Source: Escherichia coli (GTDB lineage: Bacteria > Pseudomonadota > Gammaproteobacteria > Enterobacterales > Enterobacteriaceae). From it: DNA of 64,000 nucleotides. Positions 3,175 to 17,447 of the stretch are shown in pieces; within the stretch, counting starts at the first letter, position 1, and each line of letters starts with the position of its first letter. Made by a program: the position numbers and the translations under genes. The DNA is taken from assembly GCF_051903065.1 (NCBI RefSeq), contig NZ_CP178438.1; one strand, written 5' to 3'. Under the pieces are notes generated by a model. That model had not been told where the DNA came from, did not search any database, and saw only the letters and a list, made by a program, of their open reading frames with translations.

Positions 3175-4575
3175 TCAGGTATGTTTAAAGCTGTTCTGTT
3201 GGGCAATACCCTGCAGTTTCGGGTGATCACTGAGATATTTCAGGGAGGCTTTGTAGTCTTCCAGCAACAGTTCAGCAAAGTCCATTTCGAAGCCGCGACG
3301 ACACATAATGCGCATCACCACGATGTCGGTGGCTTCACCGCCGAGAGTGAAGGCCGGAACCTGCCAGCCGCGCAGACGCAGACGTTCAGAGAGGTCGTAC
3401 AGGGTGTATCCCGGATCTTCACCATCTTTGAGTTTGAAGCAAACCGCCGGAATGCCTTCGTCCGGGCGACCGGTACAGATGAACTCATACGGCCCCAGTT
3501 TGGCGATTTCATCCGCCAGATAAGCGGCAACCTGGTAAGAGGCGTTCTGTACTTTGGTGTAGCCTTCACGACCGAGGCGCAGGAATTCATAGTACTGTGC
3601 AATTACCTGACCCGCCGGGCGGGAGAAGTTGATGGCGAAAGTACCAATCTGACCCCCCAGGTAGTCAACGTTGAACACCAGTTCCTGCGGCAGCGCTTCT
3701 TCATCACGCCAGATAACCCAGCCGCAGCCCAGCGGAGCCAGACCGAATTTATGGCCTGAAGCACTGATCGATTTCACACGCGGCAGGCGGAAGTCCCAGA
3801 CGATATCCGGGGCGACGAACGGTGCCAGGAAGCCACCGCTGGCGGCGTCGATGTGCATGTCGATGTCGATACCGGTGTCGGCCTGGAATTTATCCAGCGC
3901 ATCGTGCAGCGGTTGCGGGAACTCATAGTTACCGGTGTAGGTCACGCCGAAAGTCGGCACCACGCCGATGGTATTTTCGTCGCAGGCTTCAATCATGCGT
4001 TTCGGATCCATAAACAACTGACCGGGGCGCATAGGGATCTCACGCAGCTCCACATCCCAGTAGCGGGCGAATTTATGCCAGCAGATTTGCACCGGACCGC
4101 ACACCAGGTTTGGTTTATCCGTTGGTTTGCCTGCAGCTTCCATACGCTTGCGCCAACGCCATTTCATCGCCATCCCGCCGAGCATACAGGCCTCGGAAGA
4201 ACCAATGGTGTTGGTGCCAACGGCCTGACCATTTTTCGGCGCAGGCGCATGCCACAGATCGGCAACCATATTTACGCAACGCAGGTCGATGGCTGCGGAT
4301 TGCGGATATTCTTCTTTGTCGATCCAGTTTTTGTTAATGGATAAATCCATCAACTTGTGGACATTTTCGTCGTCCCAGGTCTGGCAGAAAGTGGCCAGGT
4401 TCTGACGAGCGTTGCCATCAAGATATAATTCGTCATTGATAATCTGAAATGCGACATCGTCGCGCATTTCGTGCAGCGGAAAACGTTTTGATTCTGCGAT
4501 AGTGGAAATAGACTTCGCACCAAAACGTGAATCGAGTAGTTCCGACCTTAAATCCGTTACTTGCTTCTTATCCAT
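3175..4575 (-). CDS. gadB: Glutamate decarboxylase beta (PLP-dependent)
   Basis: ORF runs to 4644 but the protein matches GadB from the internal [15 protein letters not shown] start (466 aa); SGHKFG PLP-lysine motif present. Confidence 0.95.
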
Positions 4576-4654
4576 TTTAAACTCCTTAAAATGATTGGAT
4601 CGCATTAAAAAAGTAGGATTTATCGATAAAGTAAGCAAGTGCAAAGGACTCGTG

Positions 4655-4674
4655 TTTAAATAACAAAATCCTAA
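4655..4674 (-). promoter_or_regulatory. GAD box (GadE/GadX-RpoS binding element) in the gadB promoter
   Basis: Minus-strand sequence TTAGGATTTTGTTATTTAAA, about 80 bp upstream of the gadB start codon. Confidence 0.7.
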
Positions 4675-4907
4675 TGTTATTTATCGTGAGATATTGCGTG
4701 AATAATATTTTTTCATTGAAAAACAATATAGTAGGGAGCTCTTGGGTGGTGGTAAGGTGTTTTATGCTGTTATTTTTATGCGCTTTCTTTGCCTCCTGAA
4801 TTATCACGTAAAAATCAGACCTTAAAATATCACTATTAGTACTTGGTTATTATTTTGAACGCATTTATAAAATTATTACATAAAAATAGCGAATATTGCT
4901 AAAATCC

Positions 4908-4932
4908 CCGCCAACGATGTGTTGACGGGGCT
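4908..4932 (-). terminator. Candidate terminator downstream of pqqL
   Basis: Imperfect GC-rich inverted repeat ccccgccaac...gttgacgggg; on the minus strand it is followed by a U-rich stretch just past the pqqL stop. Confidence 0.4.
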
Positions 4933-4936
4933 GTTA

Positions 4937-7732
4937 TTATTTTGGCAATAATACTCCGGTATAGGTATTTACCGGATGAGAAAGATATTGTTTAACGGCA
5001 GTGTTAACATTCTCTACCGTCATTTGTTTCAACAATTGCTCCTGCTCAGCCCATGCTGCAGGATCGTCATATTGAATAAGACTATTTACAATAGTGTTCG
5101 CTAATTGTTGAACGCTACGCTGTTGGATATCGAGGCTGCGCTGAACGTTTTGCTGGTATTCGTTCAGTTCTTGCTCACTGATCCCCTTAGTCAAACGCTT
5201 AACCATCACTTCATTCGCTAACGTTAACAGTTCATCATGTCGTTCTGGTTGACAAGTAAAAGCCAGCAAATGACTGATATCTTTGGCCTGAGGATCAACC
5301 GAGAGGCGAGAAGAAACGCTGTATGCCCCAGATGCCTGTTCACGAATATTAACGCGTAGATCTTTTGCCAGTGCGACGTTAAAAGCATCGAGCGCCATAC
5401 GCGTCGCCAGATTAACAGGTGTCCGGGAATCATAACGCTTCCACTGTGAAACCTGTGCCACAGGTTCATTTTGTTCCTTTACAGTAACCGATGCGTTGTC
5501 CGTCGCGCGAGTTAATGGTTTACCTGCGGCTAATGGCGAATCAGAGTGTTTGATTGATCCTAAGTAACGCGTAATTAACGCCACGAGTTTGTCTTCTGCG
5601 ACATTACCGACAATGACAAACGTGATATCCGCTGGAGATGAAAACAACTGGCGATCGGCAGCCAGCGCATCTGCGGCAGTAAACTGTGCAATCTGATTTT
5701 CTTGCAGTAATTTCGTGCGGTCATCAGCATAGCGCGTCTCATACATCTGCTGGGCGAATTTCTCCGCTGGACGCTGGTCGAGCGTTTTCAACGCCTGAAT
5801 TTGAGCATTTTGTAGCGATGCCCAAATATTGTCGTTAATCGTGCTGTGGGTGATTCGCTGGTTAATCAACTGAAAACCAGGTTCAGGGTTATTAGTCCGC
5901 GCGCTAACGGAGAGCAACGTATTCATGCCACTGACTTTACTGCTCATGGTTACCGAGTTTTCCGCACTCCAGCGTTTCAGGCTGGAAGAGGAGAGTTCGC
6001 CAACGCCGCTTCCGCTAACTGCTTTATTTGCCAGCGCGATAAGTGATTTTTGCTGCGCAGGGAAACTTAAATCGCCTTTATTCGATACGGCAATAATTTG
6101 TAGCTTTTGCTCTTCACCCGCGGATTTTGCCAGAATAACCCTGGCACCATTGGAAAGTGTTAATGATGTCAGATTCTCAGCCAGCGTTTCTTTGCTGCTA
6201 ATTTCCGCCTGTGGGTCAGCGTCTACTGTTAACGATAAATTTCTGCCTGGGAAGATGTAAGCCGCCAGCTTTTTGTTGGCGTACTCTTTTTCCAGCGCCA
6301 GGATAGCCGCAGGAGACAATGCTTTTTTGGCGGCAAGCTCATTGTTTACCATTTGCTCCCAAAATGCGTCCTGGTTCTTTCTTAACTGCTGCCATTTTTC
6401 CGCCAGACTTTGCACGGTAATTTGCTGCCACAGACGTTTCGAAAGTTGATATGTCTCTTCCGGCGACAAGAACGGCGTATTATTTAATGAGCTTGATGCC
6501 AGGCGACTGGTCAGCATACGTAAATCACGTTCAGCTTGCTGATCAACCGCATTTTTCAGCCAGGTGAGGCGGGTAGATTTGACATCATCGAGTTCTTCAG
6601 CAGAAAAACCATGCTGATCAATGGCTGTTAACTCTGCCATTAATGCATTCGCAGCATCCTGCATATTATCGTCTCGTGCATTTACACGGAAAAACAGCGA
6701 CTGATAATCGGGTGCAATTTTAACGCTGCGCGCAGTGCCGCCAGAAATAGTCTTCAACTCGCCCGACTGTATGCGTTCCTGCAGACGTTGATTGAACAGC
6801 TGAACTAACATGCTCCATTCAGCTTGTTCGATAAAGCTTTGCTCATCGTTCACTTGTACCATTGGCAGGCGATAATAGAGTGCGATGCCGTTCACCCGGT
6901 TTTCTTTATCATTAATGATATTAAAGCGCAGGTGATTTTCGGCTTTTGTCGGCCAGACGCGATTTTCAGCTGCTTTGTTAGCTGGAAGCTTACTTAAATT
7001 ATCCTTTATCAGCGCCAGCGCTTCTTTACTGTCGATATCGCCAACCACGATAAAGGTCATATTATTTGGTTGATACCAGCGTTGATAAAATTGGCGCAAT
7101 TGTGCCGGTGTGACCGTGGCGACAGTATCCATCAGGCCGATAGGTTCACGGTCTAAATTACGGGTATTAGCCAGCAGGAAAGGGCGGCGCGCCTGAGAGG
7201 TGCGCCATTTCGCATCCTGATGGGCACGCCATTCCTCAGTAATTACGCCGCGTTCAGCGTCTACTTCGAGTTTTTCAAAGGTTGCGGCATTACTCCATTC
7301 ACTGAAGATTGCCATCACTTGTTGCAGATTTTGTTTCTGCGTAGTTGGCAAACTCACCTGATACACCGTTTCGTCATAGCTGGTATAGGCATTAACATCG
7401 CGACCAAAACGCAGGCCCATTGACTCAAATGTTTCGATGACTTTATTACCCGGCCATGTTTTTGTGCCGTTAAACATCATATGTTCTACAAAATGAGCCA
7501 CGCCGCGCTCATTGTCTTCTTCCTGCAATGAACCGGTATGAATTTGCAGCCATAAATTTACCTGATCCTTTGGTTGAGCATGCGGATAAATCATATATCG
7601 CAAGCCATTGTCCAGTTGTCCGGTAATTAACTTTTCATCCTGCGGTAAGGCGGCGGCAATCAGCCGCCCGGGGAGCAACAGAGTTGCCACTAACGTCAGT
7701 AAGAAACAGAGGTTTCTCATAATTATCTCCAT
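4937..7732 (-). CDS. pqqL: M16-family zinc metallopeptidase PqqL
   Basis: 931-aa ORF with signal peptide and inverted zincin motif HFVEH. Confidence 0.9.
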   Translation of the reverse strand: MEIIMRNLCFLLTLVATLLLPGRLIAAALPQDEKLITGQLDNGLRYMIYPHAQPKDQVNLWLQIHTGSLQEEDNERGVAHFVEHMMFNGTKTWPGNKVIETFESMGLRFGRDVNAYTSYDETVYQVSLPTTQKQNLQQVMAIFSEWSNAATFEKLEVDAERGVITEEWRAHQDAKWRTSQARRPFLLANTRNLDREPIGLMDTVATVTPAQLRQFYQRWYQPNNMTFIVVGDIDSKEALALIKDNLSKLPANKAAENRVWPTKAENHLRFNIINDKENRVNGIALYYRLPMVQVNDEQSFIEQAEWSMLVQLFNQRLQERIQSGELKTISGGTARSVKIAPDYQSLFFRVNARDDNMQDAANALMAELTAIDQHGFSAEELDDVKSTRLTWLKNAVDQQAERDLRMLTSRLASSSLNNTPFLSPEETYQLSKRLWQQITVQSLAEKWQQLRKNQDAFWEQMVNNELAAKKALSPAAILALEKEYANKKLAAYIFPGRNLSLTVDADPQAEISSKETLAENLTSLTLSNGARVILAKSAGEEQKLQIIAVSNKGDLSFPAQQKSLIALANKAVSGSGVGELSSSSLKRWSAENSVTMSSKVSGMNTLLSVSARTNNPEPGFQLINQRITHSTINDNIWASLQNAQIQALKTLDQRPAEKFAQQMYETRYADDRTKLLQENQIAQFTAADALAADRQLFSSPADITFVIVGNVAEDKLVALITRYLGSIKHSDSPLAAGKPLTRATDNASVTVKEQNEPVAQVSQWKRYDSRTPVNLATRMALDAFNVALAKDLRVNIREQASGAYSVSSRLSVDPQAKDISHLLAFTCQPERHDELLTLANEVMVKRLTKGISEQELNEYQQNVQRSLDIQQRSVQQLANTIVNSLIQYDDPAAWAEQEQLLKQMTVENVNTAVKQYLSHPVNTYTGVLLPK

Positions 7733-10186: not shown

Positions 10187-11872
10187 TTATAAAACCGCGC
10201 TAATGTCACAAATATCATCTGCCAGGTTCCAGACACCGGGTTGATGTGTAACCATAATGACGCCGCTTGTGGGTAGTTTTTCACGCACTAAACGCAGTAA
10301 GCGGATAGCCTCTTGTTCCTCAAGATGAGAGGTAGTTTCGTCAAGAAATATCCATTTCGGACGTCGTAAAATTAATCGTGCCAGGGCGATACGTTGTTTT
10401 TCGCCGCTGGAAAGAATATCTCCCCAGCGATCGTGGTCATGAATACGCGCAGCCAATTTCCCCAGACCAACCTGATGCAGTACTTCGCTCAACGATTTAT
10501 CGTCTACGAGCAGGGGAAGTGCTTTACAAATAATCTCTTTCAGTAAGCCGCTTTTGATTAACGGTGTTTGTGACACATACCAACTGTCAGCAGGAGAAGA
10601 AATATCACCTTTAAACCACGGCCAGCAGTGGGATAATGTTTTAAGCAGTGTGGTTTTTCCCGCACCAGAGTAACCTTTCAGTAATAGCCATTTGCCTGGC
10701 GAAACATGAAAGTTCAGGTTCTCTAATATGATCTTATTATCAGGCGTACGAATACTCGCATCAGCCACTTGTACCGCATGTTGGCAATTTTTAGGCTTAT
10801 TCGTAGGGCGCTGTTCAGTGAGTTGATGGAACTCATACAAGCGATCGATAACCGCAGCCAGTTCAGCAAGTTCGTCATATTTATAGATAAACCAGCTTAA
10901 ATTGTTCGATACCAGCATAAATGCCTGGCGCGATTTCATCAGTCCGCCCAGATTGATCTGCCCGCTAATAAACTGCGGCAATAACAGAAAGTAGGGAAGA
11001 ACGCTAAGCGAGCGCGAATAAATATTTTGCCAGTAATCAAGCCACCGCTGACGATTCATTAAACGATGCCAGTTCTCTTTAATGGTATGAAAATTGTCGC
11101 TCAACTCCTGGCGTTGTAGAGACTCAGCATTGCTTAGCGCAATCAGTTCAGCCTGCTTATTATGCTGCACAAGATTTGTTCGAAATGTCGCTTCGCTACG
11201 TTGTTTTTCCACATTAAGCGGACGAATACGTTTACCAACCTTATGGGTAAATAAAGTTCCACCGATCACAATGAGCACAACGGTATAGACCATATACCCC
11301 TGGATATTCCATTCTGTTCCACCAACAGTGAATGAGAGCGTACCCGCGCTTTGCCAAAGAATAACGGTAAAGGTGATCAGCATGCTAAGTGACTGGATGA
11401 AGCCAAATGAAAGACTGAGCGTTTTGCTGATCAGTAAGAGAATGTCTTCAGCGATACGTTGGTCAGGGTTATCTGTATTTTTATGCTCGCCGTAGATCTG
11501 CGTGAAGTAGTAGTTTTTATCTGCAAACCAGCGATTAAGGTAGTAATCTGTTAACCATTCGCGCCAGCGAATAGTCAGCAGTTTAATTAACCATGTTTTG
11601 TTTACGGATATTAATACAAAGATCCCCAGCAGGGCAGGGAACCAAAGGACAAGCTGCCAAAGCTTATCGGTTTCTTTCTGGCTTAGCGCATTGAAAAAAT
11701 CATTATTCCAGTCGTTTAACCAGACCTGAATTTTAACCACGCCAAGGATCATGGCGAGGATAATAATGATTAACAACACTGAAGTTTTATTATTCTTACG
11801 CAGCCAAAAGGGCTTCAGCAGACAGAGATACTTTGCTATCAACATACAAAACGTAATGGGAATGGTTATCAT
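10187..11872 (-). CDS. yddA: ABC transporter fused permease/ATPase YddA
   Basis: 561 aa; N-terminal TM domain; Walker A GYSGAGKTT and ABC signature LSSGEKQR. Confidence 0.9.
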   Translation of the reverse strand: MITIPITFCMLIAKYLCLLKPFWLRKNNKTSVLLIIIILAMILGVVKIQVWLNDWNNDFFNALSQKETDKLWQLVLWFPALLGIFVLISVNKTWLIKLLTIRWREWLTDYYLNRWFADKNYYFTQIYGEHKNTDNPDQRIAEDILLLISKTLSLSFGFIQSLSMLITFTVILWQSAGTLSFTVGGTEWNIQGYMVYTVVLIVIGGTLFTHKVGKRIRPLNVEKQRSEATFRTNLVQHNKQAELIALSNAESLQRQELSDNFHTIKENWHRLMNRQRWLDYWQNIYSRSLSVLPYFLLLPQFISGQINLGGLMKSRQAFMLVSNNLSWFIYKYDELAELAAVIDRLYEFHQLTEQRPTNKPKNCQHAVQVADASIRTPDNKIILENLNFHVSPGKWLLLKGYSGAGKTTLLKTLSHCWPWFKGDISSPADSWYVSQTPLIKSGLLKEIICKALPLLVDDKSLSEVLHQVGLGKLAARIHDHDRWGDILSSGEKQRIALARLILRRPKWIFLDETTSHLEEQEAIRLLRLVREKLPTSGVIMVTHQPGVWNLADDICDISAVL

Positions 11873-12134
11873 TAGCGAAAATTGATTGTGCCATCCAATG
11901 ATTATCTATGGCAATGATTTACTGATGAAATTTATTTAAGTATCATTTAACAATATGAAATATATAGAAATTTTTAATTTTCAGTGGTTATGGTTATGCT
12001 ATTGATAATCAAGGATATTGCTAATGCCCTGACGCATACCACGTATGCCAGGATTTTCGCAAGGGAAGATGATGATGACGAAACACCCAACAGGAATTTA
12101 TGTCGGGTGTCTTGTTAAGGCCATAAGAAGGAGG

Positions 12135-12740
12135 CTAAGACTGGAGCAAAGAGGGCGTGTTATTAATTATTCTCCATTTGTTTTGCAACTTCTGGAATAA
12201 TTCAGGCAAGAAAGTTTCTGTTAGCGGAATACCATCCTGAGCATCAGTATTGGAATAGACACCAAAGCGTGCGGGCGCTCGACCGGTCATTATTGCGGCG
12301 CGGGAGGGGCCGGAAACACCGTGTGCCACATAGCCGTTAGTAAAACGTACGCCTTCATCCATTAATGAAAGGAGCGTCGGCGTTGATTTTTGTGCAGCTT
12401 CAATGGCTTTATCTATCCCTATTTTGTAGGTATCGACAACTTCACGATTTTCCATTGTTTTTGGGTCAAAAGATCCCTTATCAAAAGGAAGTTGTCCATA
12501 ACCAAGATCATCCATGGTTAGTACGATAATATTTGGCTTTCCTTTGGTACTGTATTCAGTCGGCGTAAAGTCTGAGAAAGCAACGTTTGTTTTGGTTGCT
12601 TTCAGCTTTACATCATCTGCCGCATGAGCAGCAAATGCAGCCATACCAGATGCCAGTATCAAAGATATCGAGGTACTTACGACACTTTTCTTTAATGCAG
12701 ACTTCATAAATGTTCCTCTTCTTATTGTACTTAATTCCAA
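12135..12740 (-). pseudogene. ydeN: Sulfatase (ydeN-like) N-terminal fragment, truncated after about 180 codons
   Basis: 201-aa ORF with signal peptide and sulfatase N-terminal core (IIVLTMDDLGYGQL); C-terminal tail diverges and stops. Full-length sulfatase is about 560 aa. Confidence 0.6.
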
Positions 12741-13039
12741 AGTAATTTTACGAAGAGAAATAAGTGGATGTAAGTGAAGTTAGTCACATAAAGAGATAGC
12801 AGATTTAGCTAAAAAAAGGGAAATAACAGTCCATAAAGCGTTGACATTACTTTCTGTTCTACTAAGTAATTTCTCGCCGATAAACAACTAATATATTGAT
12901 ATTTAATAAATTATTGTATTTTACTGACAAAATGCCGAATTGAGATCATAAATAATCATGCAACAGGTTATGCAAATGCATAAATATGTGATGAATGTCA
13001 CTTATTTATTTCAATAAATATATCGCCTAAAAACAACGC

Positions 13040-13060
13040 GGGGCAGGGAATGACTGCCCC
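13040..13060. terminator. Bidirectional rho-independent terminator downstream of ydeO
   Basis: Stem ggggcag/ctgcccc with 7-nt loop, flanked by T-runs on both strands. Confidence 0.5.
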
Positions 13061-13110
13061 ATTTTTAATTTTTAAGTAGGGTGCGTGGTTGACTACTCGT
13101 TAGCAAATAA

Positions 13111-14390: not shown

Positions 14391-14554
14391 TTAATTTGAT
14401 GGTTCTAATTCAACCGGAATACTTTTATAGCCAGGAATGCCACTTAATGGATCGTGGTTATCAAGTGTTAGCATGTGATTCGATTCTGGAAAATAGGTCA
14501 CCAGTGAGCGGTCAGCCATAGGGTAAATGACCACTTTTAATCTATCCATGCGGC
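14391..14554 (-). pseudogene. ydeP: ydeP 3' remnant (last 51 codons plus stop) separated from the gene body by IS1
   Basis: Hand translation of the minus-strand frame continuing across the TSD gives [55 protein letters not shown]; 708 + 51 = 759 aa, the expected YdeP length. Confidence 0.75.
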
Positions 14555-14609
14555 GGTGATGCTGCCAACTTACTGATTTAGTGTATGATGGTGTTTTTGA
14601 GGTGCTCCA

Positions 14610-14885
14610 GTGGCTTCTGTTTCTATCAGCTGTCCCTCCTGTTCAGCTACTGACGGGGTGGTGCGTAACGGCAAAAGCACCGCCGGACATCAGCGCTATC
14701 TCTGCTCTCACTGCCGTAAAACATGGCAACTGCAGTTCACTTACACCGCTTCTCAACCCGGTACGCACCAGAAAATCATTGATATGGCCATGAATGGCGT
14801 TGGATGCCGGGCAACAGCCCGCATTATGGGCGTTGGCCTCAACACGATTTTACGTCACTTAAAAAACTCAGGCCGCAGTCGGTAA
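14610..14885 (+). CDS. insA: IS1 InsA
   Basis: 91-aa [26 protein letters not shown]..., zinc-finger CxxC...CxxC. Confidence 0.95.
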
Positions 14886-15307
14886 CCTCGCGCATACAGC
14901 CGGGCAGTGACGTCATCGTCTGCGCGGAAATGGACGAACAGTGGGGCTATGTCGGGGCTAAATCGCGCCAGCGCTGGCTGTTTTACGCGTATGACAGGCT
15001 CCGGAAGACGGTTGTTGCGCACGTATTCGGTGAACGCACTATGGCGACGCTGGGGCGTCTTATGAGCCTGCTGTCACCCTTTGACGTGGTGATATGGATG
15101 ACGGATGGCTGGCCGCTGTATGAATCCCGCCTGAAGGGAAAGCTGCACGTAATCAGCAAGCGATATACGCAGCGAATTGAGCGGCATAACCTGAATCTGA
15201 GGCAGCACCTGGCACGGCTGGGACGGAAGTCGCTGTCGTTCTCAAAATCGGTGGAGCTGCATGACAAAGTCATCGGGCATTATCTGAACATAAAACACTA
15301 TCAATAA
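14804..15307 (+). CDS. insB: IS1 InsB (expressed as InsAB' by -1 frameshift)
   Basis: 167-aa ORF overlapping insA in the -1 frame. Confidence 0.9.
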
Positions 15308-15322
15308 GTTGGAGTCATTACC

Positions 15323-17447
15323 CCATGCGGCGTGAGCTGCGCTTACCGTCTGGCGTAAGCGCAATAAGATTAACTCTTTCGCCGTTTTTTACACGGCAAA
15401 TTTTAGCTTGTTTAGCACTCATAAAGACCACATCTCGTTGACCGAATACCCCTCGATAGCGATCATCCATACCATAAATCGTCGTGTTGTACTGATCGTG
15501 GCTGCGTACTGTCGCCATGACCAGCTTACTGTTAAACGCTGAAGAGGGATCTTCTAACAGCCCTTTGCTGGTAATGAAATTAGCCTTACCTGACGGCGTC
15601 ATCCAGCGCCTTTCAGCAGCTGCATTTATCAGGTGAAAACCACCGGGATGACGGATGCGCTGGTTATAGTCGGCGAACTCTGGCAGCACAGCTTCAATGT
15701 CGTTGCGAATGCGATCATAATCTTCCACCAGATACTCCCAGGCTACCACGCTCTGGGGTAGTGCTGCCTGTGCGATTCCCGCGACCACTGCACACTCTGA
15801 TTTCAGCATTACACCGGCGGGTTTTAACACGCCACGCGAGGCATGAATCATCGACATTGAATCCTCAACGGTTACCGCCTGCGCACCGCTTTTTTGCATG
15901 TCAATCTCGCTACGTCCCAGAACCGGCAGAATATAGCTATGCCGTGCGGTCAGCAGATGAGAGCGGTTAAGCTTAGTGGCTACGTGTACCGCCAGATCTA
16001 ATTGCGTTAACGGTACAGCGCTCGCTTCCCGATCTGGCATTGCCAGTGCAAAGTTGCCCCCCATGCAGATCAATGCTCGAGCCTGCCCTGTACATATTGC
16101 TTGCATGCTGGCAATTGCAGCATGTCCAGGTGCTTGAGGTGGTGTGAAGCCATAGCGCTCACCCAGGCGAGCCAGAAACTCTGCAGACGGTTTCTCGGTG
16201 ATACCGACGGTTCGGTCGCCCTGTACATTAGAGTGGCCACGTAGTGGGCAGATACCCGCACCAGGCTTGCCAATGTTACCTTTCATCAACAGCAGATTGA
16301 CCAGTTGCTGTACATTCTGGGTACCATGTTCGTGCTGAGTGATCCCCATTCCGTAACAGATAATGGTTCGTTCGGCAGCGGCATATGCATCAGCCAGTTC
16401 GGCGATTTGTGTCTGACTTAGTCCAGAAATACGTTCGATATCTTTCCACTCGGAATTGAGCACGTCACGGCGTAGCTCGTCAAAGCCGACGGTATGCGTT
16501 TGAATAAATTCGTCATCCAGCAATGAGGGCCGACCTGCGGCGCTTGCAGCATCATCGCGCTCAATTAACAGGCGCATCATCCCCTTGAGCAACGCCATAT
16601 CACCACCAATGCGCACGTTATAGTAGGCACTGGCCAACTGAGTCTCAGAGTTCGTCAGCATTTCAAACGGGTTTTGCGGTGCGGTAAATCGCTCCAGGCC
16701 ACGTTCCTGTAGAGGATTGATGGCGATCATTTTCGCTCCCCGTTTCACTAAAGCGCGCAACGAAGTCAGCATGCGAGGGTGGTTTGTACCAGGGTTATGC
16801 CCAATGCAAATGACTAAATCGCACTTCTCAAAGTCTTCCAGCAACACGGTCCCTTTACCTACACCGATACTCGCTGCCAAACCCACGCTTGTCGGTTCAT
16901 GGCACATGTTGGAGCAGTCGGGAAAGTTATTGCTCCCGTATTCACGGGCAAAAAGCTGATAAAGAAAGGCAGCCTCATTGGAAGTGCGGCCCGAAGTATA
17001 GAATTCAACCTGATTGGGATCACTATAGCTTTGAAGGCGTGCGCCAATTTCATCGAAAGCTTGTTGCCAGCTTAATGGCTTGTAACAGTCGCTGACGGCA
17101 TCATATTTCAAAGGCTGAGTGAGTCGCCCCGCAGCCTCAAGCTCGTGGTCTCCCCAGGTAAGTAATGATTGAACCGTATTCTCAGCAAAGAAAGAGGCGT
17201 TTACCTGCTTATCCGTGACTTCCCAGGCGATTGCTTTTGCGCCGTTTTCACAAATGTCGAATGACGCACTGTGCTTAGGATCTGGCCATGCACAACCCGG
17301 ACAGTCAAAGCCCTCTGGCTTATTCATGTCAAACATGGCAATAACATCCTGGCGTATATCCATCTGCTTACGTACTGCATTCGCTACGGATTTAACAGCA
17401 CCCCAACCACCGGCAGCTCCCTGGTAGGATTCAATTTTTTTCTTCAT
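15323..17447 (-). pseudogene. ydeP: ydeP (molybdopterin oxidoreductase, acid resistance) 5' part, truncated by IS1
   Basis: ORF 15318-17447 encodes the first 708 residues of YdeP and then terminates on a stop codon supplied by the IS1 end. Confidence 0.85.

Follow-up and report, generated by a model that had tools for sequence, protein, structure and literature searches.

In Escherichia coli K-12, the genes yddA, yneP, ydeM, ydeN and ydeO follow one another in this order, with ydeM encoding a protein of 385 aa and ydeN one of 560 aa. In the E. coli DNA analyzed here, i.e., a stretch of 64,000 nucleotides from contig NZ_CP178438.1 (the window), the interval from yddA to ydeO spans 3,714 bp as compared to about 6,058–6,061 bp in most E. 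coli, and a short ORF with the N-terminal part of a sulfatase is found in place of ydeN. How did this short gene arise, and can its product still be functional? An earlier note, made from the sequence of the window, had suggested that DNA was deleted here, with the K-12 order yddA-ydeM-ydeN-ydeO as reference. This proposal held, as 2,347 bp are missing between positions 12189 and 12190. Very probably, a recent deletion specific to one clone fused the 5' part of ydeN to the 3' end of ydeM and left a non-functional pseudogene, with the loss of both activities.

The locus and its gene order are shared with the K-12 operon of ydeN (b1498, putative sulfatase) and ydeM (b1497, putative anaerobic sulfatase-maturing enzyme). 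In K-12, the two genes are co-transcribed and repressed by AraC, and the substrate is not known (PMC10878103). Under severe acid stress (pH 4.4), ydeN is strongly down-regulated (PMC10746267). In comparison to the K-12 operon, the window lacks the 2,347 bp, whereas the parts that were kept are 99% (ydeN 5' part) and 95% (yddA-ydeM intergenic region) identical.

Extent of the deletion and nature of the junction

First, the endpoints were mapped, for which an alignment of the region to K-12 had been suggested in the earlier note. BLAST comparison of window positions 11800–12800 with K-12 (L003) and MARGA_3 (L002) yielded two blocks that abut at 12189/12190, and the same single junction was obtained with ECNB21-M121, the closest intact relative. 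The absent bases correspond to NC_000913.3 1579660..1582006 of K-12, i.e., to ydeN codons 173–560, a 51-bp spacer and ydeM codons 1–377. The junction (12189..12190, no strand) is a blunt join. The window reads ...TTGCAAC to its left and TTCTGG... to its right, whereas in ECNB21-M121 the left flank continues with ATCCAT... and the right flank is preceded by ...CCATGA. Comparison with this allele placed the junction at the identical position, and neither parental flank matches beyond it. The left breakpoint corresponds to position 4200 of the ECNB21-M121 extract (L004), in which ydeM occupies 4174..5331.

The base-level comparison with the parental flanks, which had also been suggested as a search for microhomology, gave 0 bp of microhomology at the junction. 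Within ±30 bp of the breakpoints, the longest direct repeat was a word of 5 bp that is out of register, and 93% of random position pairs reach this length. Since the junction is blunt and without homology, a slipped-strand or short-repeat deletion is excluded. Consensus scans for a new terminator or promoter made at the junction gave none above shuffle expectation.

As remarked earlier, no IS remnant is visible at the junction: IS sequence, IS1 ends, a terminal repeat and a target-site duplication were all absent, the sequence being parental to the base on both sides. An IS element, most likely IS1, may nonetheless have inserted at one of the breakpoints, driven an adjacent deletion and then been lost without trace. 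IS1 is abundant in the clone (38 matching places in genome 23CRST027, two copies in the window), one copy lies 2.4 kb away in ydeP of the window, another is located between yddA and yneP in ECNB21-M121, and IS2 or IS903B inactivated this locus in other E. coli strains. However, deletions adjacent to IS1 normally leave the IS at the junction, whereas an IS is present there in none of about 23 contigs of the clone, and the IS1 of ECNB21-M121 does not coincide with the left breakpoint but lies 247 bp away from it. Since neither an IS end nor a target duplication remains where such deletions normally retain the IS, an IS1-adjacent deletion is disfavored and an IS-mediated origin is considered unlikely.

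By exclusion of these alternatives, a homology-independent (illegitimate) joining of two breaks is the proposed origin. It may have been topoisomerase- or gyrase-mediated, or it may have occurred by end-joining after a double-strand break. On this reading, the blunt, homology-free junction illustrates how illegitimate recombination occurs in a strain from nature, and the event may be regarded as ordinary gene loss that involved no unusual mechanism.

An 8-bp inverted repeat was observed around the junction, with one arm at 12165–12172 (AATTATTC) and the other at 12195–12202 (GAATAATT). In the parent, the arms immediately flank the deleted segment and are separated by 2.37 kb. The probability that an inverted repeat this long arises by chance is about 0.044 (4.4% of random breakpoint pairs in the window), uncorrected for the several features examined, and its position bracketing the junction is probably coincidental.

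Remnants of ydeN and ydeM and the altered yneP

The retained 5' part of ydeN (12190..12707, minus strand) comprises 518 bp, i.e., codons 1–172 and two further nucleotides, when counted from the ATG at 12707 that is used in K-12 and by PGAP. The 201-aa ORF with an N-terminal sulfatase core described in the earlier note was recovered at 12135..12740 on the minus strand. It begins at an upstream TTG, and from the accepted ATG its product has 190 aa. Counted from the ATG, the YdeN part comprises 172 codons, and counted from the upstream TTG it comprises 183, so that the earlier figure of about 180 codons is a fair one. The retained ydeN is 100% identical to that of ECNB21-M121 and 99.2% identical to that of K-12 at the nucleotide level, and in translation the 172-aa prefix is identical to parental YdeN. 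Upstream of it, the ydeO-ydeN intergenic region with the ydeN promoter (12708..13110, no strand) is intact, with 100% identity to ECNB21-M121 and 96.3% to K-12 over 403 bp. A terminator-like hairpin is located 3' of ydeO at 13039..13061.

The final 8 codons and the stop codon of ydeM remain (27 bp, 12163..12189, minus strand). Thus, the absence of the partner maturase gene, as claimed before, applies to nearly the whole of ydeM but not to these last 27 bp. As 518 cannot be divided by three, translation enters the ydeM remnant out of frame, passes the ydeM stop codon and continues for another 28 bp. The resulting fusion ORF ydeN'-'ydeM (12135..12707, minus strand), a predicted pseudogene, encodes 172 aa of YdeN followed by an 18-aa out-of-frame tail, KLQNKWRIINNTPSLLQS. 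This tail, which had been noticed as divergent, is explained by the 27-bp ydeM remnant and 28 bp of downstream intergenic DNA read in another frame. The distance of 262 bp between the ORF and yddA was likewise correct, with the start codon of yddA at 11872. The deletion joined the first 172 codons of ydeN, encoding a putative periplasmic Ser-type S1 sulfatase, to the final 27 bp of the co-transcribed gene for the radical-SAM maturase YdeM.

Ser-type sulfatases require a radical-SAM maturase of the AtsB/anSME type, as in the case of Klebsiella AtsA/AtsB. Parental YdeN shares SGPSR, DD, GKWHL and SDNG with this type of sulfatase, and parental YdeM begins with a CxxxCxxC motif; in contrast, the window copy consists of residues 1–172 only and the maturase is gone. 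The DD metal site (DDLGYG, residues 66–67) and the Ser-type S-x-P-x-R formylglycine signature SGPSR (132–136) are within the retained 172 aa, and the signal peptide, the start codon and the promoter region are kept. GKWHL (182) and SDNG (344) belong to the deleted part of parental YdeN. The ORF matched the Pfam Sulfatase profile PF00884 (E = 1.7e-13, 51 bits with a cut-off of 25) at profile positions 1–90 of 301 only. Parental YdeN is of the S1 family, and among solved structures it is most closely related to the S1_19 carrageenan sulfatases (E ~1e-52). As this alignment spans residues of about 105–440, it lies mostly beyond the truncation.

About 70% of the catalytic domain is lost and about 30% is left. 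The Lys/His motif GKWHL, the second metal-ligand motif SDNG and all that follows are gone, about 70% of the protein, and a complete catalytic domain is lacking, as these two motifs and the C-terminal subdomain are absent. Judged by these motifs, ydeN of the window would be a remnant of an S1 sulfatase family member and not a functional member. A radical-SAM/SPASM maturase gene with CxxxCxxC is not found next to the sulfatase gene, where 27 bp of ydeM are left, while intact relatives encode a YdeM of 385 aa. The features of a deletion pseudogene are present, i.e., an intact orthologue in a close relative, a discrete deletion and a change of frame after codon 172, and the locus is predicted to be a loss-of-function pseudogene. 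For the same stretch in 23CRST027, the PGAP label reads 'sulfatase-like hydrolase/transferase, incomplete, missing C-terminus', and it is given as a pseudogene. Public annotation thus already contained the deletion pseudogene and marked it as such. In a literature search, no described ydeNM deletion allele was found.

The junction also lies within yneP, a small ORF on the plus strand (12075..12200), the last 8 nt of which were deleted. According to the translations, YneP of the window has 41 aa and ends with ...VLQLLE, as compared to 40 aa ending with ...VLQHP before the deletion, i.e., the last two residues were replaced. In 23CRST027, the product is annotated as hypothetical protein WP_141094503.1. 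In K-12, YneP was confirmed as a small protein by epitope tagging (PMC6001520).

The yddA-ydeM intergenic region (11873..12162, no strand) is intact and 100% identical to that of ECNB21-M121 except for the IS1 of that strain; identity to K-12 is 95%, with 3 indels. The same values were observed for 11873..12189, which comprises this region and yneP, in comparison with K-12 (L003 5344..5660), whereas the neighboring genes are 98–99% identical. YneP differs from its K-12 counterpart in 6 of 40 residues (about 15% protein divergence). The allele of 11873..12189 was found at 99.5% identity or more in only two intact complete genomes, namely ECNB21-M121 and GDSC2227PM. The low identity of the region may be due to yneP being weakly constrained or to a patch of local recombination.

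Since the promoter, the start codon and the signal peptide are intact, the 190-aa fragment could still be produced. That the fusion product or the 41-aa YneP is a functional new protein under selection is very unlikely. The intact expression signals and the repeated sampling of the clone (at least 20 samplings, with several different prefixes among the run accessions) are in line with this idea. However, the product retains the said minor part of the catalytic domain, and its tail is out-of-frame read-through. Evidence of selection on the 190-aa product or on the altered YneP was not found, and the divergence that the yneP region already showed between K-12 and this lineage suggests weak constraint.

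Distribution of the junction and age of the deletion

The deleted 2,347-bp segment was present with at least 80% coverage in 5,323 of 5,426 complete E. coli genomes (98%), and all or part of it is absent in about 2%. On the basis of these counts, ydeNM is nearly core in E. coli. A 400-bp probe centered on the junction matched end to end in only two of the 5,426 complete genomes, 23CRST027 and 23CRST031, which are from human faeces in Ecuador. Positions 1–25000 of the window are 100% identical to both except for one extra IS1, and the window belongs to their clone. In a larger protein collection, the exact 190-aa product was found in about 20–23 draft or SRA contigs and the 41-aa YneP variant in 27 contigs. 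All retrieved contigs with the exact 190-aa product are 99.9–100% identical to the window, which suggests a single event in a single clone.

The earlier note had stated that the same short gene and spacing in K-12 or the nearest references would speak against a deletion. However, K-12 has the full-length ydeM and ydeN, ECNB21-M121 is intact, and the short gene was found only in the same clone. Over about 5.1 kb of flanking sequence, a comparison of ECNB21-M121 (L004) with the window gave 1 mismatch, and on each side of the junction hundreds of bases match at 100% identity. Since the flanks are nearly identical to those of this intact relative, the deletion appears to be recent. At the strain level, the deletion marks one rare E. 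coli clone.

It is scarcely conceivable that the short gene is ancestral or that the junction is an assembly artefact. The junction is flanked by the 27-bp 3' remnant of ydeM and by a ydeN 5' part that is in register, and 98% of the E. coli genomes carry the full segment. Moreover, the junction is not an artefact of assembly since it was reproduced in two independent complete genomes and in about 20 independent short-read assemblies.

A further possibility was that ydeN breaks recurrently at nucleotide 518, i.e., that the breakpoint is a hotspot. A partial YdeN of 172 aa (P0008) occurs in 52 blocks of the collection, from contigs ending at ydeN nt 516–518, and in AP027483.1 a single G is inserted at a distance of 2 nt upstream of the breakpoint. 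However, the contigs ending at nt 516–518 are from unrelated lineages with 97–98% identity to the window and simply stop there without a novel junction. Partial YdeN proteins of 179, 180, 181, 182 and 186 aa are similarly frequent (27–47 contigs each), which by a rough estimate represents the background of contig ends to be expected in a species sequenced this often. A 400-bp wild-type probe over the site was uninterrupted in 5,331 of 5,362 complete genomes, and the deletion junction is confined to one clone. Thus, a hotspot was rejected as highly improbable, given contig ends without a junction, neighboring partial lengths that are as common and no excess of interruption in the complete genomes. 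A single event in one clone is favored.

Possible consequences and IS1 insertions near the locus

As neither a substrate nor a phenotype is known for YdeN/YdeM, losing ydeNM was assumed to be a probably neutral, or almost neutral, change for this clone. Alternatively, the deletion may have been adaptive: the loss of ydeNM together with the IS1 knock-out of the adjacent ydeP in a sub-lineage could represent the shedding of an acid- and gut-associated locus in a spreading human-associated clone, or a role may have arisen for the 190-aa fragment that is exported or for YneP in its altered form. Such an advantage is regarded as quite improbable. The clone represents a clean natural double knock-out of ydeN and ydeM, and it could be a natural control for the proposed desulfation of host mucin glycans by YdeNM. 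This role in mucin desulfation is speculation only (PMC10878103).

The IS1 in the acid-resistance gene ydeP is 768 bp long (14555..15322) and located near codon 706 of 759. It is flanked by a 9-bp target-site duplication (CCATGCGGC) at 14546..14554 and 15323..15331. Since this IS1 is absent in 23CRST027 and 23CRST031 and present in the draft genome GCA_036912935.1 (L015), it appears to mark a sub-lineage of the clone. Together, the ydeP IS1 and the ydeNM deletion would inactivate two genes of the acid-fitness neighborhood. The window and 23CRST027 seemed to differ in length by 7 kb, but this was an artefact that arose when a distant IS1 match was joined; the real difference is the one extra IS1 in ydeP.

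The IS1 between yddA and yneP in ECNB21-M121 is an IS1A (L004 3186..3953, about window 11943..11951), and its target duplication is 9 bp long. Although independent of the deletion, this insertion shows IS1 activity at the locus in this lineage.

Other natural inactivations of the operon in E. coli are IS2 in ydeM (VTB96926v), IS903B in ydeN (MLI106K4) and a 1-bp insertion in ydeN (AP027483.1). In these independent loss-of-function events, an IS insertion or a frameshift affected one of the same two genes, whereas the window carries a clean blunt deletion of both without a mobile element. Two complete genomes in which the halves of the query were not joined proved to contain insertions of IS2 and IS903B, at other positions. 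In AP027483.1 (L021 5001..6684), the inserted G (CAGAAT to CAGGAAT, allele P0012) falls within codon 173 of ydeN, at a distance of two bases from the breakpoint of the window, and ydeN is split into ORFs of 182 aa and 375 aa. This genome is unrelated to the clone, and the insertion may reflect either a real frameshift or an error in sequencing.

The second IS1 of the window (31959..32726) is 99.9% identical to the first. It abuts an autotransporter pseudogene of the ECSE_1600 family (about 26915..31956), which is described by PGAP in 23CRST027 as frameshifted and N-terminally incomplete. In addition, a partial helix-turn-helix pseudogene is located beside hipBA (about 24576..24845). The coordinates of these two pseudogenes were estimated by shifting the L005 annotation by 777 bp.
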